A stretch of 64,000 bases of DNA from assembly GCA_963848135.1 (NCBI GenBank), contig CAWKCK010000017.1, forward strand, positions 1,218,538 to 1,282,537, written 5' to 3'. A program made the translations under genes and the position numbers. The notes under the pieces were generated by a model. That model saw only the letters and a list, made by a program, of their open reading frames with translations. It made no database searches and had not been told where the DNA came from. Source of the stretch: an uncultured delta proteobacterium. Lineage in GTDB: Bacteria > Desulfobacterota > Desulfobacteria > Desulfobacterales > SG8-13. Below are positions 1,240 through 30,302 of this stretch, one piece after another; the stretch's first letter is position 1; every line of letters begins with the position of its first letter.

Positions 1240-1351
1240 GAACTTGTGCCTGGTGCTATTTTCCGGCCCTATCAACCGGCGGATTTCCTGAATATATCCT
1301 GACGGTATCGTTATAATAGAGGAGAAATTAGATAGTTACGATTTTGGCAAG
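1240..1351 (+). repeat. Array junction repeat (AJR) copy 1, left/core/R segments, ending in TGGCAAG
   Basis: Aligns with 15287-15397: gaact..ctg.tgctat..cggcggatttcctgaatata.cc..cg.tatcgt..gatagtt..tggcaag. Confidence 0.8.
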
Positions 1352-1389
1352 CTGTACGACATAAAACCTATTATTTCTATTAATAATGG

Positions 1390-2325
1390 TTAGTTATAGC
1401 CCATTAAATGTATTGGTTTTTGCTCTTTGTCAAGAGTTTTTTCACCGTCACCGGTGTGGCGTTGAAGCACCTTGTTCATGGCGCTATAGTAATCACGTCG
1501 AACCTTCGGGTTGGAGACCCGACAATACCGCTGCGTGGTTTTTATGCGCGTGTGGCCGAGCAGATCCTGGATGGTAACCAGGTCGGCATCGGCGTTGAGC
1601 ATCTGCGTGGCCATCGTATGGCGAAGTTGATGGCAACAGACTCTCAGCCCTGCTTTGCTGGCATAGAGCTGCATGCGGTGCTGGATGCCGCGGGCCTTGA
1701 GCGGTTTGCCTCTAAAGCGGCCCTTTTCCACCAGGAAGAGCTTTTTGACCCGCGAGTGGGGTCTGGCTTTAAGGTAAGCAGCCAAGGCGGTGTATGCGTC
1801 CTTGCTCAGATAGACCACACGGTCTTTTAGCCCCTTGCCCTGGTAGACAAACACTTGATACCGCGGCAGGTCCAAGGCACTCAGAGTGAGATTGGTTACC
1901 TCTTCGACCCGGAGTCCGCAGCGCAGCATCAGCTTGAAGATGGCCCGGTCTCTGGGATTGTCGATGACCGCAAAGAGCGCAGAGATCTCTTCATCCCGCA
2001 GGTAGCGCGGCAGTGGCCTGGAGAGCCTTAAGGTATACCCGCGCTTGACCGGATTGCTCATTACAACCTCCTCTTCGTTGATCAGGTAATCATAAAAGCC
2101 GCGGATGCTGTCCAGGTAGCAATTGACGGTCTTGGGTTTCAAACGCTTGCTGCGCAGATAATCGATGAAGCCCAATAGTTTCTTGTGGGTGACAGCCTCC
2201 ACGGGCATATCCAGCCAGACGACAAACTGCTTCAGGGTGCTCATATAGGTTCGCAGCGTATGGGCGGAGTAATTGCGTCGCTTTAAGAACCTACGGTAGT
2301 TGATAATCGAGTTGGTAATGTCCAT
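1390..2325 (-). CDS. tyrosine recombinase (second gene of the pair)
   Basis: 311 aa with a SAM-like N-domain. Catalytic motifs are GLRVEE, HQLRHTMAT and LLGHTRIKTTQRY. Confidence 0.9.
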   Translation of the reverse strand: MDITNSIINYRRFLKRRNYSAHTLRTYMSTLKQFVVWLDMPVEAVTHKKLLGFIDYLRSKRLKPKTVNCYLDSIRGFYDYLINEEEVVMSNPVKRGYTLRLSRPLPRYLRDEEISALFAVIDNPRDRAIFKLMLRCGLRVEEVTNLTLSALDLPRYQVFVYQGKGLKDRVVYLSKDAYTALAAYLKARPHSRVKKLFLVEKGRFRGKPLKARGIQHRMQLYASKAGLRVCCHQLRHTMATQMLNADADLVTIQDLLGHTRIKTTQRYCRVSNPKVRRDYYSAMNKVLQRHTGDGEKTLDKEQKPIHLMGYN

Positions 2326-3379
2326 GGAGTTCTCCCTTTTCGACGATGGCCATGGCTTTGTAGTATTGTTCCCGGCGCGTGTTGTCGGTCAGCCGGGCAT
2401 AGCGGCGGGTCATTTCGATGCAGCTGTGCCCGAGAAGCTCCTGCAAACACTGCAGCGGCATACCGGCGTTGAGCAGCTCTGTGGCGAAGGTGTGCCGCAG
2501 GCAGTGCAGGGTGTATCCCTTGTGGGCCAGTCCGGATTTTTGCAGATAGGCGTTGAAGATTAGGCGGGCAGCCGCATAACCCAGGGCTCGCCCGCAGTTG
2601 CCGTAGAAGATGAACCCGCTTTGTCTTCTCCTGGTGTTCAGCCATTTTATTAGAGCGCTTCGGGCATCATCGCTCAAATAGACAACGCGTCCGACCCGGT
2701 TCTTTTGTGCTTCTATGATTTGTATAATATTTTCCCGCAGGTTGAGATCTTCCACTTTGGTGCCGAGCAGCTCGCCGATGCGCATCCCGGTTCGCAACAA
2801 TGTCAATACCAGGGCGCGATCACGCGGTTTTTTGACTACGGCCAACAGCTGCTTGATATGATCCGGATCAATGGCCCGCGGCAGGGCATCGGGAACTTTA
2901 ATGCGCAGTTTGCGCTTGAGCAGATCCGGGTGAAGCACATCGCGATCGATCAAAAAGTTGATAAAGGCATACAGGCAGCGCAACTGAGTGCTGACCGTAT
3001 TGGGTGAAAGCCCGCGGTCTTGCTCATGTTCAACGAATTCGGCGATGTGCTCGCGGGTGATGGCGTGCAGTTGATTGGTGCCACTGTCTTTGAGAAAAAG
3101 TAAAAAACCGGTAATGTTGCCACCGTTGGATCGGATCGTGTTGGGTCGGCAATTGCGTCGATGCTGATTGAGCAAATACGCCCTGACATGCTCTGCAGCC
3201 ATGAGATCCTGCACGGTGATTTTGCGTAGGATTCGGTCAATAAGAGGATTGAAAGTGAAGGGATTTCGATCGAAATTGGAACGGACCGAGGACGAACGAA
3301 TTGATTTGTCCTTGCCGGACCGATGCCTTTTGAGTTGATCGGTCTGGATTTCTGCGGAAACGTGTTCGAGGTTCATCAC
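2291..3379 (-). CDS. tyrosine recombinase (first gene of the pair)
   Basis: 362 aa with GMRIGEL, HCLRHTFAT and LLGHSCIEMTRRY. Its 3' end overlaps the next recombinase gene by 35 nt. Confidence 0.9.
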   Translation of the reverse strand: MMNLEHVSAEIQTDQLKRHRSGKDKSIRSSSVRSNFDRNPFTFNPLIDRILRKITVQDLMAAEHVRAYLLNQHRRNCRPNTIRSNGGNITGFLLFLKDSGTNQLHAITREHIAEFVEHEQDRGLSPNTVSTQLRCLYAFINFLIDRDVLHPDLLKRKLRIKVPDALPRAIDPDHIKQLLAVVKKPRDRALVLTLLRTGMRIGELLGTKVEDLNLRENIIQIIEAQKNRVGRVVYLSDDARSALIKWLNTRRRQSGFIFYGNCGRALGYAAARLIFNAYLQKSGLAHKGYTLHCLRHTFATELLNAGMPLQCLQELLGHSCIEMTRRYARLTDNTRREQYYKAMAIVEKGELHGHYQLDYQLP

Positions 3380-3464
3380 TGCCTCCTTTCGTTTTTAGCA
3401 GAAAAAACAGGCAGATAATGACCTCTGTAACACTTTCAGTCAATTACCTTTTTATGTCGTACAG

Positions 3465-3530
3465 TGGCAAGAAATGTTTAGTGGTGAACCACTTTGTAGT
3501 ATTGACGGGATTTTGTTTAACGTGAAATGA
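3465..3530 (+). repeat. AJR copy 1 resumed after the insertion (TGGCAAG + gtaTTGACg segment)
   Basis: tggcaag..tagtattgacggg matches the tggcaag..gagtattgacc segment of the other copies. Confidence 0.6.
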
Positions 3531-3991
3531 ACGTTGACGTAAGATCATAACTTAAGATGATAAAGAGATAAGGAAAATATGCCCGGTATTCTAACTTAAC
3601 AGGTTTTACAAAAACTGGGAGTAAAGTACTACTATGCGTATTAAGATATTCTTTGCCAGGGTGCTCGACGCTGTTTTTGGTTGTCTGCTAACGGTTGCAT
3701 GTTGCAACCTATTATCTGTAGTATTGGTATTCATAAACATCTTAAATATAGCGAATCCTCTATTGGCAGTCCAACATCCTTGACAAACTGCAACGAGTTA
3801 GTAGCTTAAATCCAAACTTGGGTTGTTAAATGGCCTTGTAATACTTCCAGCATCTCTTCTGTTTCCAGATATTCGCATCTAAAACTTCATAAGTAATCTT
3901 ATGAAGCCTTGTATGGAGTCAGATAATTCTTATCCGATCAATCTTAAATTAATCATCAATTCAGTACCAATAGACAATAAACAAAGAAAGG

Positions 3992-4486
3992 ATGAACCCA
4001 ATGAGCACAAATGATCTATTTGTATACGCAGCGGCATATGACGATGAAGGGGACGCACGTTCCGACCTGGAGACATTTCAGGAGTTAGCTTCGGTAGGCG
4101 TCGTCGGCAAATGTGATACTGCGGTATTGACCAAGGGTGAGGACGGAAAAGTCCACGTTGAGAAGCATGGCACTGCCTCTAAAAGCGTCGGTTGGAAGGG
4201 TGCTATCGCTGGAGGAATTGTGGGGCTTCTTTTTCCGCCGTCAATTTTAGTCGGCAGCCTTGCCGGTGGTGCCGCCGGTGCACTGGCCGGGAAGCTATGG
4301 GGCGGTATGTCCCGCTCCAATCTTAAAGAGATCGGTGAGGCTCTCGACGAACACGAGACCGGGCTGGTCATTGTGGGTGAATCCACCGTCGACGAGTTTG
4401 TCGAGAAAGCACTAAAAAAAGCTAAAAAACGCATTCGCAAAGAATTGAATACCAAACTTGACGACATCGAGAAGGAGTTAGAATAG
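3992..4486 (+). CDS. DUF1269-like small membrane protein (glycine-zipper TM)
   Basis: 164 aa. Central segment GAIAGGIVGLLFPPSILVGSLAGGAAGALAG, charged C-tail, purine-rich RBS. Confidence 0.75.
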   Translation: MNPMSTNDLFVYAAAYDDEGDARSDLETFQELASVGVVGKCDTAVLTKGEDGKVHVEKHGTASKSVGWKGAIAGGIVGLLFPPSILVGSLAGGAAGALAGKLWGGMSRSNLKEIGEALDEHETGLVIVGESTVDEFVEKALKKAKKRIRKELNTKLDDIEKELE

Positions 4487-4541
4487 CAGAGCTTTTTAAA
4501 TCTAATTTGGAATAGTTTTGATTTGAAATGGATGTAAATTT

Positions 4542-4570
4542 GGCAGGACCAGAAATGGCCCTGCCTTTTA
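4542..4570 (+). terminator. rho-independent terminator (GGCAGG..CCTGCC + T-run)
   Basis: Hairpin ggcaggacc-agaaat-ggccctgcc followed by tttta. Confidence 0.6.
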
Positions 4571-4604
4571 TTTGGAACAATTACATTTGTTGCTGTCAAA
4601 ACGC

Positions 4605-4717
4605 AAACTCAATGTACCTGCTATGACCTTTGAGCTATCACATGGTTGGTTTGCTTGAGATAGCCGAATCGTATATTCATTTTTAACGGTATTTTTGATA
4701 GTTACGGAAGTGGCAAT
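4605..4717 (+). repeat. AJR copy 2 (uninterrupted left-core-R)
   Basis: aaactcaatgtacctgctatgacctttgagctatc..ttgcttgagatagccgaatcgtatattcatttttaacggtatttttgatagttacggaagtggcaat. Confidence 0.85.
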
Positions 4718-5037
4718 ATTTTTTATAACCCCACCACAAATATTCACCGATAGGTCACACACCAAAACAGTACAATGTATTATAAATATCTAAAATAATA
4801 TATTTTTGTTGACATTATTTCTCCTCAACAATAATGAATTTAATATTCAGCTCCTTCCGCATCTGATGCTCCATACCGAATCTACATCCATTGTATAAAT
4901 TATCTAAATCCACTGAGCTGATTTTCGACAAGATTTATATAGCCGACCAAGTTTTTAATTACCGTTCAATTACTGGTAACACCTAAACAATACTACAATA
5001 GTTGACTATTAGATTTGCTTCCCAGAGGAGGAATCCT

Positions 5038-6354
5038 TTGAAACTAAAAAATAAATGGAATCTGTTCTGTTTGAGTGTTTTATTTCTTGTATTTGGATTA
5101 CTCATGGCTTCATGTGGTGGTGGTGGGACTGGTAACAATAGTCCGCCAAGCCCTGCTACACTGTCTGAGGCAAAAATAACGGTCACCTCAGATGATCAAG
5201 TCGCGACTGTAATGTTTGTTGATGGCTCAGATACTTGGGATGCTGAATATGTAAGTTCTTGCCTGGAAGATTGTATTTCAGACACTGACGATCCTTTAGG
5301 GCCATGGTACGGTCAGTCAGTTAACTTTAAAGGTATCGAATCTGGAGGTAAAGAATTAATCTATCGCTACAAACTTGAATTTGACCAGGATGTTGAAGTT
5401 TCTTCAATTGAAATATCAGGAACTGGGTGGGGTAAGTTTCGGTTATTAGATGAAAGCATGAATGATCTAATAAATATTGATCTTCCTGGTGGCAATAATT
5501 TTCATACTTATACTATTCATACCCATGGATCGGATAGTAAAATTTACTATATGGAAGAAATTGATAGTGTGAATACTGTTTCTCGATACCGTTCAAATAT
5601 TGAGGCCCATTTCTCACAAACGTGCGCTTCAAAGGCCAATATTATCCTTGATGGCAGCATTTATAGCAGTATCTCAGGGACTGGATGGTTTGTAGAAGAG
5701 GCTTCGATTGGTGCTTATTCGAATTACGACCCATCTGGTGGCACTTATATATGGGTTGAATATGAAACCTATTTAACCGAGGGGGAATGGAACATAGGGC
5801 TATGTGCCATTAATTGGGGCGATCTCGGCCCTGATCCCGAATGGTATCCTTATTTCGAGCTTTCAGTTATCGTTAAACGCGAAAATGATACCGTGGCAGA
5901 CAGTATCATTACAGTACCAGCAAGTGACACCAGTTTGAATTCGGGATATTATACCGTTAAAGTACCTGAAAATGGGCTATATAAGGTAAGATTCGCGTGG
6001 CTAAATGATAAATATGAAGAAACCAGACCTGATGGATCAATGGCTTTAGATGCCAATATAAAAATAGCAAGGGTATTCTTTGACAGCGATGATGACGATG
6101 ACGGTGTTCCAAACATCAACGATGTTTGCCCAGAAACTGCATTCGGAGCAAACGTGGATATAGATGGATGCAGTGGAGCGCAAATCGTGGACCGAGAGTG
6201 TCCATGCGATGATAGTTGGAAAAATCATGGTGAGTATGTAAGTTGTGTCGCTCATGTCGCAGAAGAGCAGCTGGAATCCAACTTTATCACCCCCGTAGAG
6301 AAAGAGGCTATCGTATCCACACATGCTAAAAGCGTCTGTGGGAAAAAGGGATAA
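5038..6354 (+). CDS. secreted lipoprotein with an Asp-rich thrombospondin-type-3-like Ca-binding repeat
   Basis: TTG start 6 nt after GAGGAGG. Signal peptide with lipobox LLMASC. C-terminal DSDDDDDGVPNINDVCP..DIDGCS. Confidence 0.75.
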   Translation: MKLKNKWNLFCLSVLFLVFGLLMASCGGGGTGNNSPPSPATLSEAKITVTSDDQVATVMFVDGSDTWDAEYVSSCLEDCISDTDDPLGPWYGQSVNFKGIESGGKELIYRYKLEFDQDVEVSSIEISGTGWGKFRLLDESMNDLINIDLPGGNNFHTYTIHTHGSDSKIYYMEEIDSVNTVSRYRSNIEAHFSQTCASKANIILDGSIYSSISGTGWFVEEASIGAYSNYDPSGGTYIWVEYETYLTEGEWNIGLCAINWGDLGPDPEWYPYFELSVIVKRENDTVADSIITVPASDTSLNSGYYTVKVPENGLYKVRFAWLNDKYEETRPDGSMALDANIKIARVFFDSDDDDDGVPNINDVCPETAFGANVDIDGCSGAQIVDRECPCDDSWKNHGEYVSCVAHVAEEQLESNFITPVEKEAIVSTHAKSVCGKKG

Positions 6355-6468: not shown

Positions 6469-6530
6469 CAGTTTAAATTTGGATTTGATTTTAATATCTC
6501 AGGGAATATGCAAAAGCACCTTTCTGGCAT

Positions 6531-6672
6531 ATCTCCAACGTATCTTAAATATATTTGCCCTTCGATTATTTCCACATTGTAAACAAATCGTAAGGCGAGA
6601 CCGACTCACACTTACTGCTATGACCTTTAAGCTATCATCTGGCCGATTTGCTTGAGATAGCCAACCGGTATC
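6531..6672 (+). repeat. AJR copy 3, left half (ends ..cttgagatagccaaccGGTATC)
   Basis: ctccaacgtatc..cttactgctatgacctttaagctatcatctggccgatttgcttgagatagcc. Confidence 0.85.
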
Positions 6673-6718
6673 TAACGAATAGAGGGGTGAAGCCAACCAA
6701 GGGATTCACCCCTTTCGT

Positions 6719-7556
6719 TTAGCAATATAGGTTTTCAATCCACCTCATCGCCTCTGTATCACTGATTGTTCCAAGATACCGCTGAGTGGTTGCAAGATTT
6801 GCGTGACGGAGAATGACCTTGCTCACGATTTCGATTGGCGCTCCGGATCGAGAGGCATAAGTAGCCGAATGCCGCCGCAGTTCATGGGGTCTCAAATGGA
6901 TACCGACCATCTTTCCCGCTTTTTTTACAACCAGCCTGGCCGCTGCATAAGTAATCGGGAAAATGCGATCATCTGGCCTGTTATAAGTCTTAATGGCATA
7001 GTCACGAAGCCTGGCAGCCACTTTCTGCGGGATGAACACAATCTCATGCTCTTTACCGCTTTTCGGTTCTCGCAGGATCAGCTTTCGATCCTGGATGTCA
7101 TTCACTCTGAGTTTTAACACTTCACCGATTCGCATCCCGCCACGGGCCATCAGTTCAAGCATCAAACGATTACGAATTTTGGTGGTTCGGAAAATGATTT
7201 CATCAACGGTCTCTTTTTCGATGATTTCCCATCTGGATACCACCCTTTCCCGATACAGTTTTCGGATCATAGGCGTATCGCAAGGATTGCCTATACCAGA
7301 GTCGATGTTATTGCGGAAAAAATTGAAAAAGGCGGACAGGTAGGAATAACGGACTCGCTTTGTGTAGGGCTTGTTACCATTGGTAAAGCTGTTCAGAAAG
7401 GAAAGGACATCATCCGGTGTAACCTGTTCAATCTCAGCATCACCGAACTCCCGGCAGAATCGGTCAATAACTGACCAATAGGACCGAACGGTATTTTTTT
7501 TTCGAGTGGGCCTTGTGGTAATCGATCCATATTTTTGCGGCTTCGGCCACTTTCAT
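6719..7556 (-). CDS. AJR-embedded tyrosine recombinase, copy 1; full length needs a one-base correction in an A9 tract
   Basis: ATG at 7556 with RBS gaggagg. The frame breaks in A9 (7494-7502). With 8 A's the reading is MKVAEAAKIWIDYHKAHSKKNTVRSYWSVIDRFCREFGDAEI..MARGGMRIGEV..HELRRHSATYA..ILRHANLATTQRY, about 279 aa. Confidence 0.8.
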
Positions 7557-7613
7557 GGTTTACCTCCTCTGGTTATTGATGTTTGACAATCGGGGAAATC
7601 CCGAGGTAAACCA

Positions 7614-7643
7614 ATGATACTCAGAAAGTATATTCAGTTTCAA
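7614..7643 (-). promoter_or_regulatory. candidate recombinase promoter spanning the module/AJR junction (TTGAAA-N18-TATCAT)
   Basis: The -35 lies in the AJR right half (7638-7643) and the -10 in the module (7614-7619). The same geometry occurs at 19275-19304. Confidence 0.45.
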
Positions 7644-7674
7644 CGCTATTTTCGATAGTTACGAGACTGGCAAG
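7628..7674 (+). repeat. AJR copy 3, right half
   Basis: gtatattcagtttcaacgctattttcgatagttacgagactggcaag matches 4671-4717. Confidence 0.85.
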
Positions 7675-8233: not shown

Positions 8234-8435
8234 AGGCCAAAGGCAGACTTTCTGAGCTTGCCCGGGGTATTTGTATTGGCCGATCCATTTTCTCATAAGG
8301 ACTTATGGTGTAAAAGATCAGGGCAGAGATTTGATTTTCTTTACCTTCACCTAAGAGTCTTGAGCGTCATCACTACACATTGTGGTTCCAGTCAAATCAA
8401 CAAATTTAAATTTATACATACTTGAATTCAGGGGG

Positions 8436-8793: not shown

Positions 8794-9720
8794 ATGAGAC
8801 GAAAGAAGCTTTTGATTGCTTTGTTGGTAATTGAAATATTGATGTCGACGCTTATTGAGCCAATATGGGCCCAAAATAAAGGAAGCGGGCGAAAAGCGGG
8901 TTATAGTTTTTCTTTTTCCTATACGCCTGTCTATCAATTTGAAACCGACCTTGACAGTGGCGGTAGTTTCGATGTCAGTCGCCACTACTTGAACTTTGAC
9001 GTCATCCGTCCCTTTGGTCAAAACCTGCGGCTAGGTTTGGGTTTAAATTACGAATTCGAAAAGTGGAATTTCAATAATATGACCAATGTGGTCGGGGCAA
9101 CCCCATGGGGTTCGATTCATCGGCCTGGTATCAGCCTGCCGATTTTCTACACTTTCTCGGATAACTGGATTTTAGGATTCTCGCCGTCAGTAGAATATTC
9201 CGGTGAGTCTGGGGCCAAGTTCAGTGAGAGCTTGAATTATGGTGGTATTCTATCTTTGTCTCATCCTTTCAGCCGAAATCTTTACATAGGGCTTGGCTTC
9301 GGTCTTTTTAGTCGGTTGGAAAAAACAACCATTTTTCCATTTATTGTGATCGATTGGAAAATCAGCGAGCAATTTCGAATCACGAATCCGTTCAGAGCAG
9401 GACCGGCTGGACCGGCCGGACTAGAATTTGTTTATTCTCCGGCAGAGAATTGGGAGCTGGCAATAGGCGGAGCGTATCGATTCTACCGCTTTAGGCTGGA
9501 CGATAAAAGCGCTGTTCCAAATGGTATCGGTGATAATAAGTTTGTGGTGGCATTCCTTCGGGCACAGCGGAAACTGGGTGCAAATTTTTCCATTGATCTG
9601 GCAGGAGGAGCGCTTTTTGCGGGGAAATTGTCCATAGAAAACTCGACCGGTGACAAACTGGGATCAGACAATTACGATCCGTCTCCCTTTTTAGCGCTCA
9701 CGTTGGCTGGAAAATTTTAA
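8794..9720 (+). CDS. outer-membrane beta-barrel-like protein
   Basis: 308 aa. RBS aaggag, signal peptide, alternating aromatic/Gly beta-strand pattern, C-terminal ..LTLAGKF. Confidence 0.75.
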   Translation: MRRKKLLIALLVIEILMSTLIEPIWAQNKGSGRKAGYSFSFSYTPVYQFETDLDSGGSFDVSRHYLNFDVIRPFGQNLRLGLGLNYEFEKWNFNNMTNVVGATPWGSIHRPGISLPIFYTFSDNWILGFSPSVEYSGESGAKFSESLNYGGILSLSHPFSRNLYIGLGFGLFSRLEKTTIFPFIVIDWKISEQFRITNPFRAGPAGPAGLEFVYSPAENWELAIGGAYRFYRFRLDDKSAVPNGIGDNKFVVAFLRAQRKLGANFSIDLAGGALFAGKLSIENSTGDKLGSDNYDPSPFLALTLAGKF

Positions 9721-10260: not shown

Positions 10261-10381
10261 CTCAATACCACATCGTAGCAATTGACAATAGTAGCCCTTC
10301 CTGTATTGATTATTTTAGTCAGAATAGCCAAAACGTATCGGCATAATTTATAAAATTTAGCGGCGTTACTCTATTGGCAAA
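10261..10381 (+). repeat. AJR copy 4 (diverged)
   Basis: ctcaatacca..tcagaatagccaaaacgtatcgg..gcggcgttactctattggcaa. Confidence 0.6.
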
Positions 10382-14368: not shown

Positions 14369-14406
14369 AATCTAAAAACAGTAATGAAGTAAATGGTGGA
14401 AAAAGA

Positions 14407-18333: not shown

Positions 18334-18381
18334 AATGGCATAAAGGGGTGACACCCAAAAAGGGGTTCACCCCTTTTTGCA

Positions 18382-19218: not shown

Positions 19219-19288
19219 GGTTTACCCCCTTTGGTTATTGGTGTTTGACATTCGGGGAAATCCCGAGGTAAATCGATGATACTCAGAT

Positions 19289-19335
19289 CGTATATTCAGT
19301 TTCAACCCCATTTTCGATATTTACGGGACTGGCAA
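19289..19335 (+). repeat. AJR copy 7, right half
   Basis: gtatattcagtttcaaccccattttcgatatttacgggactggcaag. Confidence 0.85.
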
Positions 19336-19453
19336 GTTGTATTAATTTTTTAGTGATGAGTTTTTCCTGGCAAATCTGATCTGCTCATCAGAAAAATGAA
19401 AGAGGTGTTTAAAGACATTCCTAAAACCCATAAGTTAAGGGTTCTGAGATAAT

Positions 19454-19818: not shown

Positions 19819-19915
19819 ACTCCCAATGTATTCGTATCGGCCTGGTTAATATATAAACTGTACGACAACTATGTTACCATAGTATTCCTGACCTTGATAT
19901 TTTAAAGATTATCAT
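19819..19915 (+). repeat. AJR copy 8 (compact; R segment apparently inverted)
   Basis: actcccaatgtattcgtatcgg..ctgtacgacaactatg (reverse complement resembles gatagttacgagac)..gtattcctgacc-N16-tatcat. Confidence 0.5.
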
Positions 19916-20176
19916 ATTTATTTCGCTAAATCGGGGTTCTGACATTTAGCCTTTATTAGGAAATCCACTGTGTGCTATTGAATTTATATGATTCGTGCGT
20001 ATGTTATACGGTGAATGCAATCCAACTTCGATAAGCAATAATAAACCAGGCGATGGCTTAAGGCATCCCAAAGGTTATATTTTAAAAAAGGAATGTTTGG
20101 GCGGCATTTAAGGAGCTTCTTGGGTGTGCGTGCATCTTCTCTCTGAATAACGACACATTTGGAGGCAGTAAATTGA

Positions 20177-20206
20177 GCAGGGTCAGAAATGGCACTGCTT
20201 TTTTTA
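20177..20206 (+). terminator. terminator hairpin (GCAGGGTC..GGCACTGC + T7)
   Basis: Stem plus a run of 7 T's, with no intact ORF upstream. Confidence 0.55.
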
Positions 20207-20565: not shown

Positions 20566-20678
20566 AGCAAAAATGTACCCGTTATGCTAACAAAGCTATT
20601 CTCCGGTCGGTTTTAATGGTATAGCCAGAACGTAACTGAATATTAAGTGTAAATTCTTACGGTTACGACTTTCGCAAG
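20566..20678 (+). repeat. AJR copy 9
   Basis: caaaaatgtacccgttatgctaacaaagctattc..aatggtatagccagaacgtaac..ttacggttacgactttcgcaag. Confidence 0.7.
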
Positions 20679-20860: not shown

Positions 20861-21679
20861 CTAGTGCCCTCTGAAGTGCGGTTGACGTTTTTCTTTCAGT
20901 GCTCGCACTCCCTCGAAATGGTCTTCTGTTCGCTGGGTGATGCCCTGAAAGGCGGCCAACAGATCAAGATGGCCGCTGATTTCCGCTGTGCGAGCCTGAC
21001 GAATAGCTTTCTTAATCATAGAAATCGCAACAGGGCTGTTGGCTGCGATGGAATGTGCCAGCTTTTTCGTTTCTTCTTTTAGTGTGTCCACTTCCACCAG
21101 GTTATTCAGAAGACCCAAGTTAAGGGCTTCATCCGCCGATACGATCCGGCCCGTGAGAGAGAGTTCCATAGCTTTGGCATAGCCTACGACTCTTTGCAAA
21201 AAGAAGGTGCCGCCGTCACCGGGAACCAGGGCCAGTTTGGCAAAAGTTTCTCCAAACCGGGAATGCCTGCATCCCACTCGAATGTCGCACATGCAGGCCA
21301 GATCACAACCGGCGCCGATCGCTGCACCATTGACCATAGCCACGAGAGGAGTGTGCAGGGCCTCGATGGTGAGCGGAATCTGTTGTATGCCCCTTGTGTA
21401 ACGTCGCATAAGCCCTTCTGGATCACCGGCGAACATGCCGGTTTTTTCTTCCATAGCCTTCACGTCACCACCTGCGCAAAACGTGTTGCCGGCCCCCGTC
21501 AGAATGATAACGCGAACATCGTCATCCCAATCCGCCTCCCGGAGCAAGCGGCAGAGTTCGGTAATCATCTCATCAGAAAACGCATTGGAACACTGAGGGC
21601 GGTTGAGCGTGACCCAAAGCAGTGATGCGTTCATTTCCACCAGAAGATCCGTGTAAGCTTCATTGAGGTAATCTTTCAT
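20861..21679 (-). CDS. enoyl-CoA hydratase/isomerase (crotonase) family protein
   Basis: 272 aa. ..FCAGGDVKAM.., ..AMVNGAAIGAGCDLACMCDIR.. oxyanion-hole motifs. Confidence 0.9.
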   Translation of the reverse strand: MKDYLNEAYTDLLVEMNASLLWVTLNRPQCSNAFSDEMITELCRLLREADWDDDVRVIILTGAGNTFCAGGDVKAMEEKTGMFAGDPEGLMRRYTRGIQQIPLTIEALHTPLVAMVNGAAIGAGCDLACMCDIRVGCRHSRFGETFAKLALVPGDGGTFFLQRVVGYAKAMELSLTGRIVSADEALNLGLLNNLVEVDTLKEETKKLAHSIAANSPVAISMIKKAIRQARTAEISGHLDLLAAFQGITQRTEDHFEGVRALKEKRQPHFRGH

Positions 21680-22099: not shown

Positions 22100-22206
22100 C
22101 CGAATCTATATTTTAGCGGCTTTGGTCACTTTCATAGTTTACGCCCTTTGGTTATTGATGCCTGACATTCGGGGAAATCCCGAGGTAAACAGATGATACC
22201 CAAATC
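22100..22206 (-). pseudogene. stub of a third AJR-embedded recombinase module (5' UTR plus first ~9 codons)
   Basis: ATGAAAGTGACCAAAGCCGCTAAAATATAG plus a conserved leader (gacattcggggaaatcccgaggtaaac). Homology stops near 22100. Confidence 0.7.
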
Positions 22207-22253
22207 GTATATTCAGTTTCAATACCTATTTCGATAATCACAAGACTGGCAAG
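22207..22253 (+). repeat. AJR copy 10, right half
   Basis: gtatattcagtttcaatacctatttcgataatcacaagactggcaag. Confidence 0.8.
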
Positions 22254-22283
22254 AAAGCCGTTGTTTTCAACTGTCTGATTTTC

Positions 22284-22309
22284 GTGAGATAGCCATATCT
22301 ATTGGCAAT
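22284..22309 (+). repeat. AJR mini-copy 11
   Basis: gtgagatagccatatctattggcaa. Confidence 0.45.
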
Positions 22310-22341
22310 AGTTAAGCCATTTTATTCTAAAAATCTTGTTT

Positions 22342-23259
22342 TCACGACAGCTTCTCGTCAAGTAGAATCCTCATTTTGGCTGTGTGGGATGGTCTTGTAC
22401 CACAACAGCCGCCGACGACGGTGGCGCCGGCCGCAAGCCACTCGGAGACATGAGCACTGTATTCTTCCGGACTCAGATCCGAGCGCAGCGTCAACAGGCC
22501 ATCTGTGTCTTTTTCTCCGTCCAGGGTCCAGTCTTGCGGAATGGGAGCAAACGTATTGGCGTAGCCGCCGATCCATTGGGCACCCGTTTCAGCCAATTGG
22601 GGCATAATCGTGGTAATGCTTTCCGGCGCACAACAATTCGCGAGGAAACCGCTGACAGGTATACCCTGCATAGCGGCCACAGCTTCTGCAACGTTCTCTC
22701 CGCTGCGCAAATTCCCCGAACGATCTTCATGCAGCGTCCAGGCCACCCAAACCGGTTTGCCCGTTCGGCAGGCAGCCCTGGCAGCAGCTTGTCCTTCGGT
22801 GGCACTTGACATGGTTTCGCACAACAGCAGGTCGACATGTGGGGCCAGCAGTTCAGCCTGCTCCTGGTAAAGGGCCTCGATTTCCTGACTCGGTCCCACC
22901 AGATCGGAACGGTAGCTACCACCCAACGGAGGCAGGGAACCGGCGATGACGACTTCCCGCCCGGATGCCTCACGCGCTCCAATGGCCAGATTGCAGGCAA
23001 TCATGTTGAGTTCGGCAAAACGATCTTCAAGCCCTTCTTTGGCCAATTCCTGCCTGATAACGCCGTAGGTGTTAGTTGTTATGATATCAGCACCAGCAGC
23101 GATATAGTCGAGATGAATCTGACGCACAACCTTGGGGTCAGTCATCAAGGCTCCTGCCGACCAGATTGTCTTCGGTACCGCTACCCCCCGGAACCGCAAT
23201 TCACGCCCTAAGCCACCATCCAGCAAAACGAGTTTGTTGTTAACATTTAGCGATCTCAA
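22342..23259 (-). CDS. homocysteine S-methyltransferase family protein
   Basis: 305 aa. ..DIITTNTY.., C-terminal ..VVGGCCGTRPSH.. zinc-ligand motif. Confidence 0.9.
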   Translation of the reverse strand: MRSLNVNNKLVLLDGGLGRELRFRGVAVPKTIWSAGALMTDPKVVRQIHLDYIAAGADIITTNTYGVIRQELAKEGLEDRFAELNMIACNLAIGAREASGREVVIAGSLPPLGGSYRSDLVGPSQEIEALYQEQAELLAPHVDLLLCETMSSATEGQAAARAACRTGKPVWVAWTLHEDRSGNLRSGENVAEAVAAMQGIPVSGFLANCCAPESITTIMPQLAETGAQWIGGYANTFAPIPQDWTLDGEKDTDGLLTLRSDLSPEEYSAHVSEWLAAGATVVGGCCGTRPSHTAKMRILLDEKLS

Positions 23260-23834: not shown

Positions 23835-24087
23835 TTCGACAGTCTCGCTATATTTCTTGAGTTTTTATCTGGTCGATTTGCTTGAGATAGCCACACCCTA
23901 TCGTTTCAGATGGCGTGATTTCCTATAGTTGGTTTCTTGGCAAGAAAACTTAAATTTCTGAAGAGTCTAAATCTTTCTGATTTCACCTACGTATATGGAA
24001 TGTTTAAATTATTCAGATAGCAAGCACGATATTTTTACCATTGTGCTACATTGTGGTGTTGACGTTTGAATTGCTATTGGGTTATGC
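23835..24087 (+). repeat. AJR copy 12 (with long promoter-type segment)
   Basis: tctcgctatatttcttgag..tctggtcgatttgcttgagatagccacaccctatcgt..cctatagttggtttcttggcaag..tgctacattgtggtgTTGACG-N17-TTATGC. Confidence 0.8.
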
Positions 24088-24787: not shown

Positions 24788-24878
24788 CAGATAGCCAAAT
24801 CATTTCCATCCCAAATAATGGGAACCTGAAAATCCATTTACTGGCAAGTATTGACCTGCCGCACAAGTATATTATAAT
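24788..24878 (+). repeat. AJR copy 13 (short left part, strong promoter segment)
   Basis: cagatagccaaatc..ttactggcaagtaTTGACC-N16-TATAAT. Confidence 0.7.
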
Positions 24879-25134
24879 CTTCAACAAAACTGTAAATATC
24901 AAATCTGATAATTGTTTGAAGATTCGATTTTTATTACACTACAAAAGGGAGAATCCAATGCCATGGAATTGCCATTTTTATTGCCTTAGGGCTGAATTTA
25001 ACCCTTATTGGAGGGGGAATTTTTCTGTGACAAGAAAAGGACTTTCGTTTTGACTAGGCCATGTTAACACGTCAAAAGACCTACAATGAAATCTTTAAAG
25101 AATAATCTGTATAGTAAAGAGGGGGGGGACAATC

Positions 25135-25671
25135 TTGGCATCATTTACAGATCGCATGATACGGGCAGCAAAACTGGATTTAGCCCTTTATGAGGAGGTC
25201 GAAGCGGACAAGGGAGCCATGGGGCAAGCCATGGGTGTGGTCATTCTCTCCAGTGTTGCTGCAGGAATCGGAACCATCAGCGTTACAGGGACAAAAGGAC
25301 TTATTTTCGGTACCATAGTTGCCCTATTGGGATGGTTTATCTGGGCGTTTCTGACATATTTTATTGGAACCAGGCTATTACCTGAGCCACAAACAAAAGC
25401 AGATTATGGGGAGTTGTTACGCACTATCGGATTCTCGAGTTCTCCGGGAGTTCTGCGAGTTTTGGCAATTATCCCCATGTTGGGGGTCATCCTCAATTTT
25501 ATCGTTGGTATCTGGATGCTGGTGGCGATGGTCATTGCTGTCAGGCAGGCACTAGATTATAAAAGTACTTGGAGAGCAGTCGGTGTCTGTTTCATCGGCT
25601 GGATCGTTCAGGCCGTTCTTTTCGCTTTGTTTTTTTGGTTGGCAGGGGGAATCGGAGCCTCTCAAGCCTAA
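25135..25671 (+). CDS. Yip1-domain membrane protein
   Basis: 178 aa, 5 TM helices. The TTG start is uncertain. Confidence 0.75.
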   Translation: MASFTDRMIRAAKLDLALYEEVEADKGAMGQAMGVVILSSVAAGIGTISVTGTKGLIFGTIVALLGWFIWAFLTYFIGTRLLPEPQTKADYGELLRTIGFSSSPGVLRVLAIIPMLGVILNFIVGIWMLVAMVIAVRQALDYKSTWRAVGVCFIGWIVQAVLFALFFWLAGGIGASQA

Positions 25672-25699
25672 ATAGATGGCTTTCTAATGTATTGGCGAA

Positions 25700-25828
25700 T
25701 TTGAAACTTTCAAAAACCTGAGATAGCCAGACCATATCGTAACAGGTGGTATGATTTCCAATAGTTGTGCCTGTGGCTGTCATGAGTATTGACCCGCCCC
25801 ACAGATTCAACCTAATCTCAATACATCT
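25700..25828 (+). repeat. AJR copy 14 (with promoter segment)
   Basis: cctgagatagccagaccatatcgt..ccaatagttgtgcctgtggctg..gagtaTTGACC-N18-TAATCTcaatacatct. Confidence 0.8.
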
Positions 25829-25892: not shown

Positions 25893-26258
25893 ATGTTTAA
25901 AGTGACACCAAACGGTATAAATCGTTTAGATATTGAGTTGAGTGGAAAGTTAAACGCAGAAGATATGAAAATTGCATTAGACGAATTAGTCAGCAAGTCG
26001 AAGAATATTGAAAATGGCAAAATGATGTATGAAGTTATCGACTTTCATCTTCCGTCATTCGGTGCAATGAGTATTGAATTTTCTCGGCTGCCTGAGATGT
26101 TTGGGCTGATGAAAAAATTTGAACGCGCAGCGGTATTGACTGATAAGACATGGTTAAAAATAGCAAGTGAATTAGAGGGAGTCTTGTTCCCAGGTTTGGA
26201 AATTAAAGCTTTTAATAGAACCAAAAAAGCAGAAGCAGAAGCGTGGTTGTCGAGTTAG
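25893..26258 (+). CDS. SpoIIAA/STAS-like (DUF3478-type) protein
   Basis: 121 aa. ..KMMYEVIDF..FERAAVLTDKTWLK.. pattern; RBS aggagaac. Confidence 0.7.
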   Translation: MFKVTPNGINRLDIELSGKLNAEDMKIALDELVSKSKNIENGKMMYEVIDFHLPSFGAMSIEFSRLPEMFGLMKKFERAAVLTDKTWLKIASELEGVLFPGLEIKAFNRTKKAEAEAWLSS

Positions 26259-26273
26259 GGTTAGGTATTTGTC

Positions 26274-26302
26274 TTGACGGCTTCATCTGTGCTGGTTATG
26301 CT
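26274..26302 (+). promoter_or_regulatory. candidate promoter TTGACG-N17-TATGCT
   Basis: Same hexamers as the AJR promoter segment, 28 nt upstream of the 26330 start. Confidence 0.5.
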
Positions 26303-26329
26303 GGCCCAAAAAATTTAGGGAGGTCGTAA

Positions 26330-26719
26330 ATGAAAGAATTCGATGTGTTGCTTAAGACAGTTGCTGACGGATTGGAGGCCATGGCAGATGGTATCCATGT
26401 GCTTGCAAAGAAGGTTGTTGCTATTGCCGAGACTCAGGCCCGAGAGAAACCATCCAAAATAAAGAAGGCAACTCGAACAAGGAAAGTAAAACCAGTCTCA
26501 AAGAAAGTAACCAAAAAGTCAAAAATAAAGGGCACAAGGCCTGTACCTGCCACCGAAAAAGTACTTAAGGTTATCAAGAAGTCCAAGGCTGGAGTGGACA
26601 ATGTTTCAATTGCTAAGAAGACAGGTCTTGATAGGAAACAGGTGGCCAATGCACTGTCACAGTTAAAGAAAACAGGTAAGGTCAAGTCTGTAAAAAAAGG
26701 TGTTCATGCGGTTGCTTGA
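26330..26719 (+). CDS. Lys-rich histone-H1-like / winged-helix protein
   Basis: 129 aa with a KKxTKK-rich centre and C-terminal ..DNVSIAKKTGLDRKQVANALSQLKKTGKV... Confidence 0.65.
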   Translation: MKEFDVLLKTVADGLEAMADGIHVLAKKVVAIAETQAREKPSKIKKATRTRKVKPVSKKVTKKSKIKGTRPVPATEKVLKVIKKSKAGVDNVSIAKKTGLDRKQVANALSQLKKTGKVKSVKKGVHAVA

Positions 26720-26898
26720 ATAAACCTTAGACAGATCCAGACACTGGTTGTGGCATAGACGAAGTCAGGGATTCTGAACTCTGACTTTCTTAATATCAAC
26801 ACCAGATAATTTTGGAGTGGTCGTTTGACCGGGTAATGATCATCTGGTAAAGATACAGATGGGTGGGTCACCACTTTGTTCGGCTGTAATCTTCCCCG

Positions 26899-27047
26899 AA
26901 TATTTGGCAGGGCGATGGATTTCCTGAATATATCCATACGGTATCGCTATAATAAACAAAAATTAAGATTGTTACGAGACTGGCAAGTTAAGTTTAGTGC
27001 TCTGCTACATTGTGGCAATTGACGTAACATACCAATTAGGTTAAGGT
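26899..27047 (+). repeat. AJR copy 15
   Basis: ggcgatggatttcctgaatatatccatacggtatcgct..gattgttacgagactggcaag..tgctacattgtggcaaTTGACG. Confidence 0.85.
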
Positions 27048-27169: not shown

Positions 27170-28655
27170 GGCTACCTTATGTAACATCATAAAAGTTGCA
27201 TGTTGGAAGCTCGGTTTTTTTATTTAAAAATTCGGTTCTTCTCCCGATTAGTGGGAGAAAGCCTGGTAGATTTTTAATGTAAAGTAGCGTAAATCGTGGA
27301 ACCCATAGGCTTTACGTTTAATGACCTTTATTTTGTTATTTACCCCTTCAAGTTTACCGGTATGAATGGGGTAATCACAGTGGTTGAGGATACCGTAGAT
27401 ATATCGTTCCAGAGTTTTAGCAAAGGCGTTTACAGATGGATGATTCAAGGATCGAGCCAGTGAGCACCAGTCATCAAGTGCCTTGATCGCCCAGGTTCGT
27501 GAACGGTAAGTCCAGATATGTTTGAGCTTCTCTTTTAGGATCATGACAGTGTTGATGGTTTCGTTTAGTGCCAGAAGTTCTTTGAGATGCTGCCTTTGCT
27601 CCTGGGTCTTCAGATTTTTTCGGTTTTTCAGCAACAGATACTTGGTGCCTTTGTAAACGTTTTTATCTTCCTTGGCGGCATTGCGATATTCGCTGTTTCG
27701 TACTTTGTCGATGACGCGATTAAATTTGGCGACCACATGGAACAGATCGAACACGATTTTAGCGTGAGGCACTTTTTTTTAACGGCTTTGATGAACGGCT
27801 TCCACATGTCCATCACAACCGCCTCGATGCCGGCGAGTTGCTTCCGGCTGAGCTGATTGAAAAAGCGTTTGAGCGTGTCGGCCTGGCGATGTTTTCCGAC
27901 ATAGACCACCCGGCCGCTCAGATAATCCAGGACCACCGTCAGGTAGCGATGGCCCTTGCGCACGGAGATCTCGTCTACCGCCAAAATACGCAGGCCGTTT
28001 AAATCGGGCTGCCCGTAGTCGTGCTCCAAGTAATATTTGTCGATGTTCTTGACCGTTTTCCAATTCAACCCCAGGTGCCGAGCGACCTCGGAGACGGTCA
28101 TAAATCGGCATAATTGATATACGTAACGCGCCATCCGTTGGGTGACTCTCAAATAGGGATGAAAGAGCTCCAGATCCTCGATATGAATGCCATGGCAGTG
28201 AGCGCAGAACACTTTGCGGTAGCGACAAGCCAGCCAGACCCGGGCGGTGGCCATGTTCAGGTCCCGCACCTTGCGCTGGGTCCAGCTGTGAACGCCAGTG
28301 GCCCTGCGGCCGCAGCCGTGGCAGACTGGTGCATAGCGTCCGTCGGGCTGCATCTGGATGTGTGCAGTGCCGGCATCGGCTGTAACACTCTGATTGGTAA
28401 TTTTGATTCGACCAAAAGGGAAATAAGGTGCTATGGTGGGAACGGACATCGCAGGCCTCCTTTGGATATGTTTTTTCTTGGGCGAAAAAACCAATACCCA
28501 TAAGAGATACCGGATGTCCATTCTGTTTTAATCTATTACACACTTTTTTTGCCCTGCTTCACTACAACTAATTCGGATATGATCCAAAAATTCCACACTG
28601 ATTTAAAATTGAATTTAAAGGTATGTCTCGCTTTGAGAGCCATAATATCGTTCCT
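27170..28655 (-). mobile_element. ISL3-family insertion sequence (ends approximate)
   Basis: The right end reads GGCTCTCAAAGCGAGAC in reverse complement at 28655. The left IR is not convincingly resolved. Confidence 0.45.
27248..28449 (-). pseudogene. ISL3-family transposase, frameshifted in an A8/T8 run (27773-27780)
   Basis: MSVPTIAPYFPFGRIKI..zinc-finger CHGCG..CAHC..DMWKPFIKAVKKK | VPHAKIVFDLFHVVAKF... Confidence 0.8.
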
Positions 28656-28776: not shown

Positions 28777-29145
28777 ATGAAGTTGGAAAAATATCAAGAC
28801 CCTAAAAACCCTGAATATGAGGAATCATCACGTGCACCAGGACTATTTTTACATGCTAAGCCAATGATGAATAAAACTGATTTTATGAAGCATTTTGGAG
28901 TTAACTTGCTAAAAAATGGTATCTTAGCAGTCTATATTTCTGCCTGGAATAAGAATCCAAACAAAAGTTATATAATTTACGAAGAATCGATAAGAATTTT
29001 GGAGAGTGCATCGGATGAAACAAATTTCCACCCGGAAACCAAAGATTCAAGCAGGGAATTAGAAGTTTTACACAAACATTTTTTGCTGATTACCAAAAAG
29101 ATATCGAAAAAAAGGGCCAACTTTAATCGACAAAACATTGACTGA
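28777..29145 (+). CDS. hypothetical protein (its lipoprotein signal peptide lies out of frame upstream)
   Basis: 122-aa ORF. 28709-28776 encodes MKRILLE* and then, in the ORF's frame, VWLFIILTFLSCST. Confidence 0.5.
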   Translation: MKLEKYQDPKNPEYEESSRAPGLFLHAKPMMNKTDFMKHFGVNLLKNGILAVYISAWNKNPNKSYIIYEESIRILESASDETNFHPETKDSSRELEVLHKHFLLITKKISKKRANFNRQNID

Positions 29146-29198
29146 TATTACAAAATTTTAAGGGATTAAATGACGTTATTTTAAAAAAACAATATCAA

Positions 29199-29326
29199 GT
29201 AAATGTATCTGCTATGACCTTTGAGCTATCTTACAGTTGATTGGCTTGAAATAGCCGGATCGTATCTATAGATCCTACTGGCAAATCGCCATTCAAACTT
29301 ATGGCAAGTATTCAATATGCTATAAT
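29199..29326 (+). repeat. AJR copy 16
   Basis: taaatgtatctgctatgacctttgagctatc..ttggcttgaaatagccggatcgtatc..cttatggcaagtattcaataTGcTATAAT. Confidence 0.85.
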
Positions 29327-29540
29327 TATTTGTTTACGGAACACACGCTGGATGTCACTACTCCCCTTCGAGCAAAACATACATAGGTCATTAGACATTC
29401 AGATTCAGGAACGTTTCGTCTATATGATGAATTACTATTTTTTATTTATTAATCGCATGAATCTTATTTAAAAAAAGATTAAAAAGATCACCAAAATTGA
29501 AACTTTTTTAATGGAAAAACTACTAAAGTAGGAGGAGGAA

Positions 29541-29960
29541 ATGAATCGATTCTATTTATTAATGATTGCTTCCTGTATTTGTATTATAAGCTCATGTGGA
29601 AGTATTTGGTATAGTGCAAAAATTGGAAATATTGAGGAAATTGAAAAATCATTGGATCAAGGCGTTTCAATCGAATCGAAAAGCCAAACAGGAAACACAC
29701 CACTGATCATTGCCGCATATAGTGGGAACGCTGAAACAGTCGAATATCTTTGTAAAAGAGGGGCAAATGTGAACGCCCAAGGTGCCAACGGTGCAACGGC
29801 ATTGATTCATGCCGCCTACTATAATTTTTATGATGTGGCTGAAATCCTGGTTAAATACCATGCAGATAAAAACATAAAAGATATTTTCGGAAACACAGCC
29901 CTATATTACGCTTCACAATTCAGACACCCCCCCATGATTTCTTTGTTAAAAGGTGAGTGA
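29541..29960 (+). CDS. ankyrin-repeat lipoprotein
   Basis: RBS aggaggagg, lipobox ISSC, three ANK units (GNTPLIIAA.., GATALIHAA.., GNTALYYAS..). Confidence 0.85.
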   Translation: MNRFYLLMIASCICIISSCGSIWYSAKIGNIEEIEKSLDQGVSIESKSQTGNTPLIIAAYSGNAETVEYLCKRGANVNAQGANGATALIHAAYYNFYDVAEILVKYHADKNIKDIFGNTALYYASQFRHPPMISLLKGE

Positions 29961-30165
29961 CTTCAATCGGTTTACGGTTGATATGCTCGTACCGTAATGA
30001 TTCTGAATTTAAGTTGAAGATGCTATAACAGACTGAAAACAAAAATATTTTAATTTTTGTGCCGTATATCTTAATCAGCAGCTGGTTTGAGTCTGGATCA
30101 ACCATGAATCGGCAGATATGATAAATCTATTGCAAGGAAAAAGCAGTTACAAAATCAAACTTTAC

Positions 30166-30302
30166 CTCCAACGTATCAAACGAATTGGTGAACTCAAACC
30201 TGCTGCTATCTAAACCAAGTTACGCCATCCTAAAATCCCTTGGGATAGCCGAATGGTATCCTTATAGAATCCTTGGCCATTCAAATTAACGATTATAGCA
30301 AG
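30166..30302 (+). repeat. AJR copy 17 (last copy)
   Basis: ctccaacgtatcaaacgaattggtgaactcaaacctgctgctatc..cccttgggatagccgaatggtatcc..cgattatagcaag. Confidence 0.8.

Follow-up and report, generated by a model that had tools for sequence, protein, structure and literature searches.

Gene units joined by a composite repeat in an uncultured delta proteobacterium suggest a multi-locus cassette/mosaic system with double-stranded recombination sites

A stretch of 64,000 nucleotides from an uncultured delta proteobacterium (contig CAWKCK010000017.1 of assembly GCA_963848135.1, positions 1,218,538 to 1,282,537 of the forward strand; hereafter the window) carries an array of genes separated by copies of a 100-nt composite repeat, here named U. 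Breaks of similarity with related DNA fall sharply at a 7-nt motif of U, and recombinase genes lie exactly at two internal break positions of the repeat, which argues that site-specific recombination at U builds and shuffles such arrays. We therefore favour, with a probability of about 0.55, a multi-locus cassette/mosaic system driven by site-specific recombination at double-stranded sites. At the level of the sequence, U itself is a discrete module, and the view that the gene units between its copies are exchangeable modules is supported.

The repeat was delimited with an nhmmer profile built from 11 copies and re-iterated to 101 positions. In the window the profile matches 17 segments (E 1e-5 to 1e-26), all on the + strand between 1254 and 30302, which correspond to 14 units, three of them split. 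The units lie 0.7–4 kb apart with open reading frames (ORFs) between them. A degenerate 28-nt pattern of the central block has 6 matches in the window versus 0.00 expected, and the heptamer TGGCAAG that ends the repeat occurs 13 times on the + strand, 11 of these being repeat ends, versus 3 times on the − strand. An initial annotation of this DNA had described at least 17 copies of one repeat in a single orientation. The family is real and its orientation uniform. Three of the items listed there (19819–19915, 8330–8420 and 17655–17700) find no support from the profile, and a fourth, 24788–24878, is a degenerate relic only, with the heptamer present at 24842. The units and their parts are as follows.

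1254–1351 (+): U1, ending in TGGCAAG (1345–1351), 32 nt after the stop codon of a major facilitator superfamily (MFS) gene; nhmmer E 3e-20
4618–4717 (+): U2, heptamer variant TGGCAAT; nhmmer E 5e-20
6529–6544 (+): core site of a 5' extension, ATAT-CTCCAAC-GTATC; pattern search
6615–6680 (+): U3, 5' half, to the central site GATAG-CCAACCG-GTATC (6656–6672); nhmmer E 1e-13
7615–7674 (+): U3, 3' half, GATAC-TCAGAAA-GTATA … GATAGTTACGAGAC-TGGCAAG; nhmmer E 8e-8
10315–10380 (+): U4, partial, central site to heptamer variant TGGCAAA; nhmmer E 8e-8
14514–14574 (+): U5, partial, ending in TGGCAAG (14568–14574); nhmmer E 6e-6
15298–15397 (+): U6; nhmmer E 1e-23
18276–19336 (+): U7, split by a decayed recS copy (18382–19222)
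20579–20678 (+): U8, heptamer variant TCGCAAG; nhmmer E 2e-14
22104–22313 (+): remnant of a recS element end, 3' half of U9 (22192–22253) and a U fragment (22263–22313)
23847–23944 (+): U10; nhmmer E 3e-17
24788–24848 (+): degenerate U relic, ending in TGGCAAG (24842–24848)
25717–25777 (+): U11, partial, degenerate heptamer TGGCTGT; nhmmer E 5e-10
26884–26987 (+): U12; nhmmer E 1e-15
29209–29308 (+): U13; nhmmer E 4e-16
30203–30302 (+): U14, heptamer variant TAGCAAG, 5' extension CTCCAACGTATC at about 30166; nhmmer E 2e-11

The anatomy of U was read from alignments of 26 to 47 copies from the window and its relatives. The latter, numbered L001 and so on, are related loci or contigs compared with the window, ~130 kb of DNA in total; they belong to metagenome-assembled genomes (MAGs), in which homopolymer errors and misassembly around repeats are possible. 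Over its 100 nt the repeat reads CTGCTAT(GG)TCC … CTATCA … CGGnGATTTCCTGAATATAGCC-N4-CGGTATCG … ATTTCGGATAGTT-N7-TGGCAAG. Its centre is a core-type site, GATAG-N7-GTATC, and in about one third of the copies a 5' extension of 40 nt adds a second, similarly built site, GATAG-CTCCAAC-GTATC. The core pattern ATAK-N7-RTATC occurs 15 times in the window versus 1.3 expected, mostly on the + strand and inside units. Every position of the heptamer is kept in 43 to 47 of the 47 distinct copies, and conservation ends at its right edge. The two ends of U, CTGCTAT and TGGCAAG, are not mutually inverted, and no duplication flanks the repeat. A sigma-54 reading of TGGCA was discarded by eye, the −12 GC being absent and the downstream sequence unconserved.

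Recombinase genes occupy two positions within U, the heptamer and the central site. The statement of the initial annotation that no IntI-type integrase is present is literally true, but three tyrosine-recombinase genes had been overlooked (1390–2325, 2291–3379 and 6719–7556, all on the − strand). They belong to the following features.

1352–3464 (−): two-recombinase mobile element of 2.1 kb, inserted at the heptamer of U1; Pfam, NCBIfam, sequence
3465–3471 (+): second heptamer TGGCAAG, on the far side of this element; sequence
6719–7556 (−): recS, encoding a 278-amino-acid Xer-like tyrosine recombinase, nested at the central site of U3

The two-recombinase element ends in perfect 15-bp inverted repeats, CTGTACGACATAAAA, at 1352–1366 and 3450–3464, and encloses two overlapping tyrosine-recombinase genes on the − strand, 1390–2325 (311 amino acids) and 2291–3379 (362 amino acids); two genes per element were found in all 12 loci examined. 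TGGCAAG stands on both flanks of the element in the window, in L001 and in L034, the left copy in the window being the end of U1, and the copy at 3465–3471 is either a crossover sequence or a target duplication. In L001 and L034, copies of 86–89% identity sit at the same target, the heptamer of a U copy. A 74%-identical relative (L035–L042) inserts into ATAT-CTCCAAC-ATAT and duplicates CTCCAAC, the sequence that also forms the spacer in U's 5' extension site; ACGATATCTGCTATCG, which adjoins one target of this relative, resembles the start of U. The circular junction inferred for the element would be a 15-7-15 lox-like site, with TGGCAAG between two 15-bp arms. There are thousands of homologues of 73–96% identity, and of those listed the majority lie on contigs of ~1–3 kb, the size range of the element. 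In the plasmid collection its proteins reach at most 34% identity. At 19855–19872, within one of the listed copies without profile support (19819–19915), AACTGTACGACAACTATG resembles the inverted end CTGTACGACATAAAA and may be the scar of a lost copy of the element.

Core-type sites border the recS gene on both sides at two places in the window as well as in L012 and L102. The recS unit, U::recS (6615–7674, 1,060 bp), is 92.7% identical to L012 1265–2324 and has the outer ends of U itself, starting with CTGCTAT and ending with TGGCAAG. The frame is open apart from a 1-nt indel in a T9 run (7494–7502), which could stem from a sequencing error in the homopolymer or act as a slippage-type on/off switch; once repaired, the 278-amino-acid protein aligns without gaps to intact homologues of the same length, and its catalytic motifs appear intact by eye. 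Two decayed copies are present in the window, one splitting U7 (18382–19222, with many frame breaks), the other abutting U9 (~22104–22195). RecS homologues are very numerous, many of them on ~1.1-kb contigs; more distant ones, L103 (74%) and L104–L109 (64%), come without U, and phage-type relatives at 43–55% were found in viral contigs. In the L104–L109 lineage, five of the six contigs, which come from different samples, stop ~150–195 bp past the recS stop codon, which suggests that the DNA beyond it is repeated or hypervariable. A PDB search returned archaeal XerA and XerD as the closest solved relatives of both recombinase kinds.

Other elements are also found at the heptamer. One is an IS110-family insertion sequence (IS), present in the window at 33780–35339 and again in L026, where it interrupts the heptamer of U; in L028 an integrase gene stands next to the heptamer, directly upstream of an ORF that we take to be an IS91-family transposase, a family presumably with a target preference for CAAG. 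A 1.56-kb unit first considered as a cassette inserted at the heptamer was rejected as such: it is an IS110-family element.

The distribution of U was examined in several collections. Among 185,579 species genomes, the central-block pattern gave 32 hits, and every hit that the profile confirmed belongs to one of four MAGs labelled “uncultured delta proteobacterium”, whose 8-kb loci hold 1–4 co-oriented copies each; a metagenome scan added ten more contigs with U. The pattern was unmatched in viral contigs, and nothing similar to U or U::recS was found in the plasmid collection. U arrays occur on three contigs of one MAG and on two of another, the copies being co-oriented within each of 11 further multi-copy loci. 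Within the related arrays 21 ORFs are co-oriented with U versus 3 opposite, and U starts ~10–100 nt past a stop codon. U is thus clustered and polar, yet spread over more than one array. The array-restricted distribution that the initial annotation had linked to a cassette platform was not found, since the repeat stands at two to three separate loci per related MAG, plus solo copies in L031, L034 and L078. In a unit-wise comparison among relatives, also proposed there, three units recur with different neighbours and with breakpoints within the repeat. These units and the other genes of the array are listed below.

20–1222 (+): MFS transporter gene, left flank or first gene unit; Pfam MFS_1, E 2e-41
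3472–4617 (+): gene unit with a DUF1269 gene (3992–4486) and a hairpin terminator (4546–4570); Pfam
5002–6354 (+): gene unit, 450-amino-acid protein with a weak TSP_3 match
8794–9720 (+): gene unit, DUF6268 protein; Pfam
11131–12552 (−): IS5/IS1182-type transposase, split in two ORFs; Pfam DDE_Tnp_1_2, DUF772
13004–14368 (+): gene unit, DUF4397 protein; Pfam E 3e-96
14575–15297 (+): AhpC-like gene unit (gene 14865–15173), with promoter-like TTGACC-N18-TACTCT after the heptamer and a 5' extension site at 15257–15272
15544–17385 (+): gene unit or units with a CMD-family gene, an 81-amino-acid ORF and a WD40 protein; Pfam
20861–21679 (−): enoyl-CoA hydratase gene, opposite to the repeats; Pfam
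22342–23259 (−): homocysteine S-methyltransferase gene, opposite to the repeats; Pfam
24849–25716 (+): Yip1 gene unit (gene 25135–25671), with promoter-like TTGACC-N16-TATAAT at 24851–24878
25893–26719 (+): gene unit, STAS/SpoIIAA-like gene and winged-helix gene
27628–28521 (−): ISL3-family transposase; Pfam
29541–29960 (+): gene unit, ankyrin-repeat protein; Pfam

The AhpC-like unit recurs in L004 (94.7% identity) and the unit made of the STAS gene, the winged-helix gene and U12 in L094 (96.4%), both with other neighbours, while the Yip1 unit recurs in another context in L012 (84.7%). The left breaks of the AhpC-like and Yip1 units fall at the heptamer and their right breaks at the central site, the homology of the former with L004 stopping at the central site of U6; the right break between the window and L094 lies exactly after the heptamer of U12. 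In the same way, L018 and L026, two contigs of one MAG, have a histidine-kinase flank in common (99.9% identity), which joins two different upstream arrays right after …CAAG, and modules of ~40 nt following the heptamer also reassort. Other contents of the related arrays were recorded as well: L016 carries a gene unit (3097–4092) encoding a TIR-domain protein similar to CAP12/Pycsar effectors, and cyclic di-GMP riboswitches lie inside the array of L028 (2049–2124) and ~5 kb beyond that of L026 (705–779).

We propose that 14 or more gene modules, acquired horizontally and mostly co-oriented, would be joined by U acting as a double-stranded composite recombination site, with Cre/Xer-style cores at which simple Xer-like tyrosine recombinases would cut and rejoin. 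RecS, whose gene is nested at the central site, would be one such recombinase, and the two-recombinase element would insert at the heptamer through its own junction of 15-bp arm, TGGCAAG and 15-bp arm. U copies recombining in cis or across molecules could then excise, insert and reassort modules and half-repeats, giving rise to arrays at several loci per genome. It would be these particular recombinases, rather than others, that act on U, presumably through circular intermediates made of gene and U, and the arrays may thereby capture new genes; the term gene-capture platform is plausible.

Several observations weigh against this scheme. The U copies of L016 and L050 are 99% identical although neither flank is related, which a pure gene-plus-site cassette model does not predict, and the flanks of two 91% identical copies (L004_7134 and L093_2782) are likewise unrelated on both sides. 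The breaks cannot be fitted by a single crossover point; three or more are needed, located at the 5' end of U, at its central core site and at the heptamer. No conserved inverted arms adjoin the heptamer, unlike in a normal tyrosine-recombinase core site, and the two sites flanking recS differ in their spacers (CCAACCG versus TCAGAAA). The recS copies of the window and L012 are broken, one by a single 1-nt indel and the others by heavy decay. The IS110 and integrase/IS91-like elements are also at the heptamer, so that the signal there may partly reflect the target preference of unrelated elements. Finally, the ~130 kb of relatives, a small sample, showed neither an excised circle nor an orthologous locus at which a single unit is cleanly present or absent, and a search for an empty site through the methyltransferase gene that flanks a minimal array in L012 led to 88% identical orthologues that are not syntenic downstream.

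Part of this evidence would suit the main rival explanation, in which U derives from the 1.06-kb recS element as a miniature, non-autonomous form (similar to a miniature inverted-repeat transposable element, MITE, or to a solo site) that multiplies on its own and inserts downstream of genes within a variable island. The genes between the copies would not be mobilised, and the mosaic would come from ordinary recombination between copies, differential loss and other insertions. Near-identical copies between unrelated flanks, solo copies and the outer ends CTGCTAT … TGGCAAG shared with U::recS all fit such an origin, as does the abundance of RecS homologues, many on ~1.1-kb contigs, expected of a multi-copy element; homologous exchange would also be plausible in the central block, because it is the longest conserved stretch of U. 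The heptamer is a different matter. Seven nucleotides are too short for homologous recombination, which does not produce several breakpoints located exactly at this motif without flanking homology. U also has neither terminal inverted repeats nor a target duplication, and a tyrosine recombinase is unlikely to work through a double-stranded circle of 100 bp. Moreover, the co-orientation with genes and the placement just past stop codons require an extra assumption, and an AT-rich, unrelated gene content recurs in other arrays. We regard the miniature element as the less likely reading, but as a serious one and the strongest competitor of site-specific recombination between modules.

The initial annotation had also reported that the repeats carry promoters. 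Four heptamers are indeed followed by TTGACN-N16-18-TAnnnT; overall, however, promoter-like sites are not enriched in the window (46 versus 37 ± 6 expected). This bears on a reading of U as a shared regulatory region, a multi-site operator for a GATAG-binding regulator combined with promoter modules in a stress or accessory regulon, whose spread would be a by-product. The five to seven GATAG/CTATC-type pentamers per unit, the good sigma-70-like promoters after some units and the terminator hairpins before several units agree with it. The clear post-heptamer promoters are confined to four units, no regulator gene accompanies the repeat consistently, and sharp module boundaries, nested recombinase genes, insertions at the heptamer and unit exchange between genomes are left unexplained, which makes a purely regulatory role improbable. 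A family of terminator-like hairpins, GGCAGGG…CCCTGCC-TT, was found at 4526–4567, 14391–14432 and 20160–20201; two of the three lie just upstream of units, the third ~380 nt upstream of U8.

As for the limits of the array, U1 directly follows the MFS gene and the array may therefore extend left of base 1. To the right, the remaining 33.7 kb of the window (30.3–64 kb) hold no profile match to U, in agreement with the earlier remark that no copy lies beyond 30.3 kb, although a further core-site match does occur there. This match, and an IS110-family element sitting in a heptamer-like sequence, may indicate that the end at 30.3 kb is uncertain. The GC content of the array region is 0.39–0.50 (0.39–0.48 in all 2-kb bins but one) versus 0.49–0.59 from 34 kb on, and this lower value points to a foreign origin of the array. 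The features nearest to its right end are given below.

30884–30957 (+): tRNA-Lys(UUU) gene, 580 nt right of the last clear unit; ARAGORN, Rfam
33649–33664 (+): lone core-site match ATAG-CTAAAAC-ATATC, perhaps a degenerate unit past the tRNA gene; pattern search
33780–35339 (−): IS110-family IS (transposase gene 34218–35237) in heptamer-like TGGCA|..|AG; Pfam, alignments

Integration at the tRNA-Lys gene was rejected: 580 nt separate the gene from the array, which lies on its 5' side, and the repeat does not resemble the tRNA. Directly right of the IS110 element are group II intron RNA domains (Rfam RF02005 and RF00029, 35417–36106, +) with no reverse-transcriptase ORF inside, and an 85.7% copy of this region is found at L071 2459–3024. 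Another repeat family of 130 nt (30996–31129, 43941–44075 and L018 4173–4303, 84–93% identity) may represent an IS end or another intergenic element; one of its copies adjoins an IS110-family transposase fragment (31270–31914). A cobalamin riboswitch (45343–45546, −) lies outside the array.

The class of the system was assessed against known families. For 26 copies and both strands, RNAalifold gave no consensus pairs, 16 single-strand DNA folds were no stabler than shuffled sequences (z −1.15 to +0.52), and RYYYAAC and GTTRRRY, the R''/R' cores, occurred together in none of the 26; an Rfam gathering search of 1–30.3 kb gave no match. The three recombinases score 111, 74 and 38 bits with the IntI model TIGR02249 of NCBIfam (cutoff 265), the two larger ones matching it only in two separate stretches, and 49, 46 and 32 bits with PRK15417 (cutoff 435). 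In the PDB search RecS had no match to IntI4 at E 1e-3, and the 311-amino-acid protein matched it only over residues 7–183. Co-orientation is shared with integrons; the layout of one array next to intI, attI and Pc with mostly promoterless cassettes is not. Every testable integron-defining feature failed, despite the integron-like working of the array. An ordinary chromosomal integron, or an integrase-less attC cluster (CALIN), with an unusually long attC is accordingly most improbable, even if a site 3' of co-oriented genes, a GC content below that of the flanking DNA and a recombinase gene at the left end reading away from the array recall one: the genes at that end are part of a mobile element bounded by inverted repeats of its own, and the tests for fold, cores and IntI were negative. 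The initial annotation was thus right that attC features are absent and that this is not a classical integron. Its cassette platform using a different recombinase/site pair holds in that units behave as exchangeable and Xer-like recombinases are associated with the repeat; the region is not integrase-free, and gene capture is plausible.

The remaining families fit no better. REP/BIME repeats are imperfect palindromes of 20–40 nt that flank an HUH Y1 transposase (RAYT), whereas U is a 100-nt unit without palindrome, its nested gene encoding a tyrosine recombinase of the Phage_integrase family. The MITE definition is matched by an autonomous parent with the same ends (U::recS), and neither by terminal inverted repeats nor by target duplication. 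No dif-like 11-6-11 site of the pdif type was seen in the aligned copies, the cores being GATAG-N7-GTATC in direct orientation throughout. The two-recombinase element has two genes instead of the three overlapping ones of RIT elements. CRISPR repeats of 25–40 nt at 25–70 nt spacing differ from 100-nt units lying 0.7–4 kb apart with ORFs between them.

To our knowledge, no well-characterised system other than the integron stores single-gene cassettes and reshuffles them; the hallmark of integrons is the recombination of folded single-stranded attC by IntI. If double-stranded cores and Xer-type enzymes do the same here, cassette-array architecture arose more than once. There is a real chance of a separate invention among cassette arrays based on site-specific recombination. 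The fuller claim is one that we put forward tentatively: a second, independently evolved cassette platform, with modules, some bearing their own promoter, in several arrays per genome, a double-stranded composite site and Xer-like genes inside that site, and with neither attC folding nor IntI. Such arrays would be missed by integron-finding tools, leaving uncounted a mobile accessory gene pool of uncultured sulfate-reducer-like bacteria, which in the relatives includes a TIR defence-effector gene. They would also provide compact new recombinase/site pairs, with a candidate 15-7-15 lox-like site and a 5-7-5 core site.

In the literature on integron-like non-attC cassette systems and on paired tyrosine recombinases we found no description of U or of these elements. 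RIT elements, to be compared with the two-recombinase element only, consist of three adjacent overlapping tyrosine-recombinase genes (ritA, ritB and ritC) with palindromic or inverted flanks, their mobility being inferred from their distribution (PMC3414803). Overlapping tyrosine-recombinase genes, palindromic or inverted flanks and a mobility deduced from distribution are common to both, whereas the present element has two Xer-like genes and a defined 7-bp duplicated core, TGGCAAG (CTCCAAC in its relative).

With the pdif modules of Acinetobacter, the arrays share gene modules that are bounded by Xer-type double-stranded core sites and found in different contexts. The pdif sites are 28-bp dif-like sequences in alternating orientation, carried by plasmids and served by the host XerC/D, whereas here 5-7-5 cores are embedded in a 100-nt repeat in direct orientation, on the chromosome and with their own recombinase genes. 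REP/BIME-RAYT systems (REPtrons) and MITEs likewise combine a short multi-copy intergenic repeat with a “master” copy that holds a recombinase gene, as U::recS does. U differs from them in its length of 100 nt and in having no palindrome, terminal inverted repeats or target duplication, and from REP-RAYT systems in an enzyme that is a tyrosine recombinase rather than an HUH Y1 transposase and in copies that are clustered and co-oriented rather than scattered.

The Neisseria intergenic mosaic elements (NIMEs) are mosaics of short modules bounded by dRS3 repeats. As in U, the modules are delimited by small inverted-repeat cores, which are also targets of mobile elements, and reassort between strains; the sequences and host groups are unrelated. 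We know of no NIMEs with nested recombinase genes or separating whole gene units in long co-oriented arrays, and the enzyme targeting dRS3 is a Piv/IS110-type and not a tyrosine recombinase.

Integrons, sedentary chromosomal integrons and CALINs included, are similar in that small, AT-richer genes without mutual relation, most of them in one orientation, each have a recombination-site repeat behind them, in units that recur in other genomes with different neighbours and in the involvement of tyrosine recombinases. Other mobile elements home to the site in both cases, and in integrons these are IS1111-attC elements and group IIC-attC introns. In contrast, U is conserved in sequence, without single-strand hairpin potential or R''/R' cores, and among the associated recombinases there is neither an IntI nor the insertion specific to IntI. 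Their genes are found within copies of the repeat instead of at one end beside attI, several arrays occur per genome, some units have their own promoter, and each site has more than one breakpoint.

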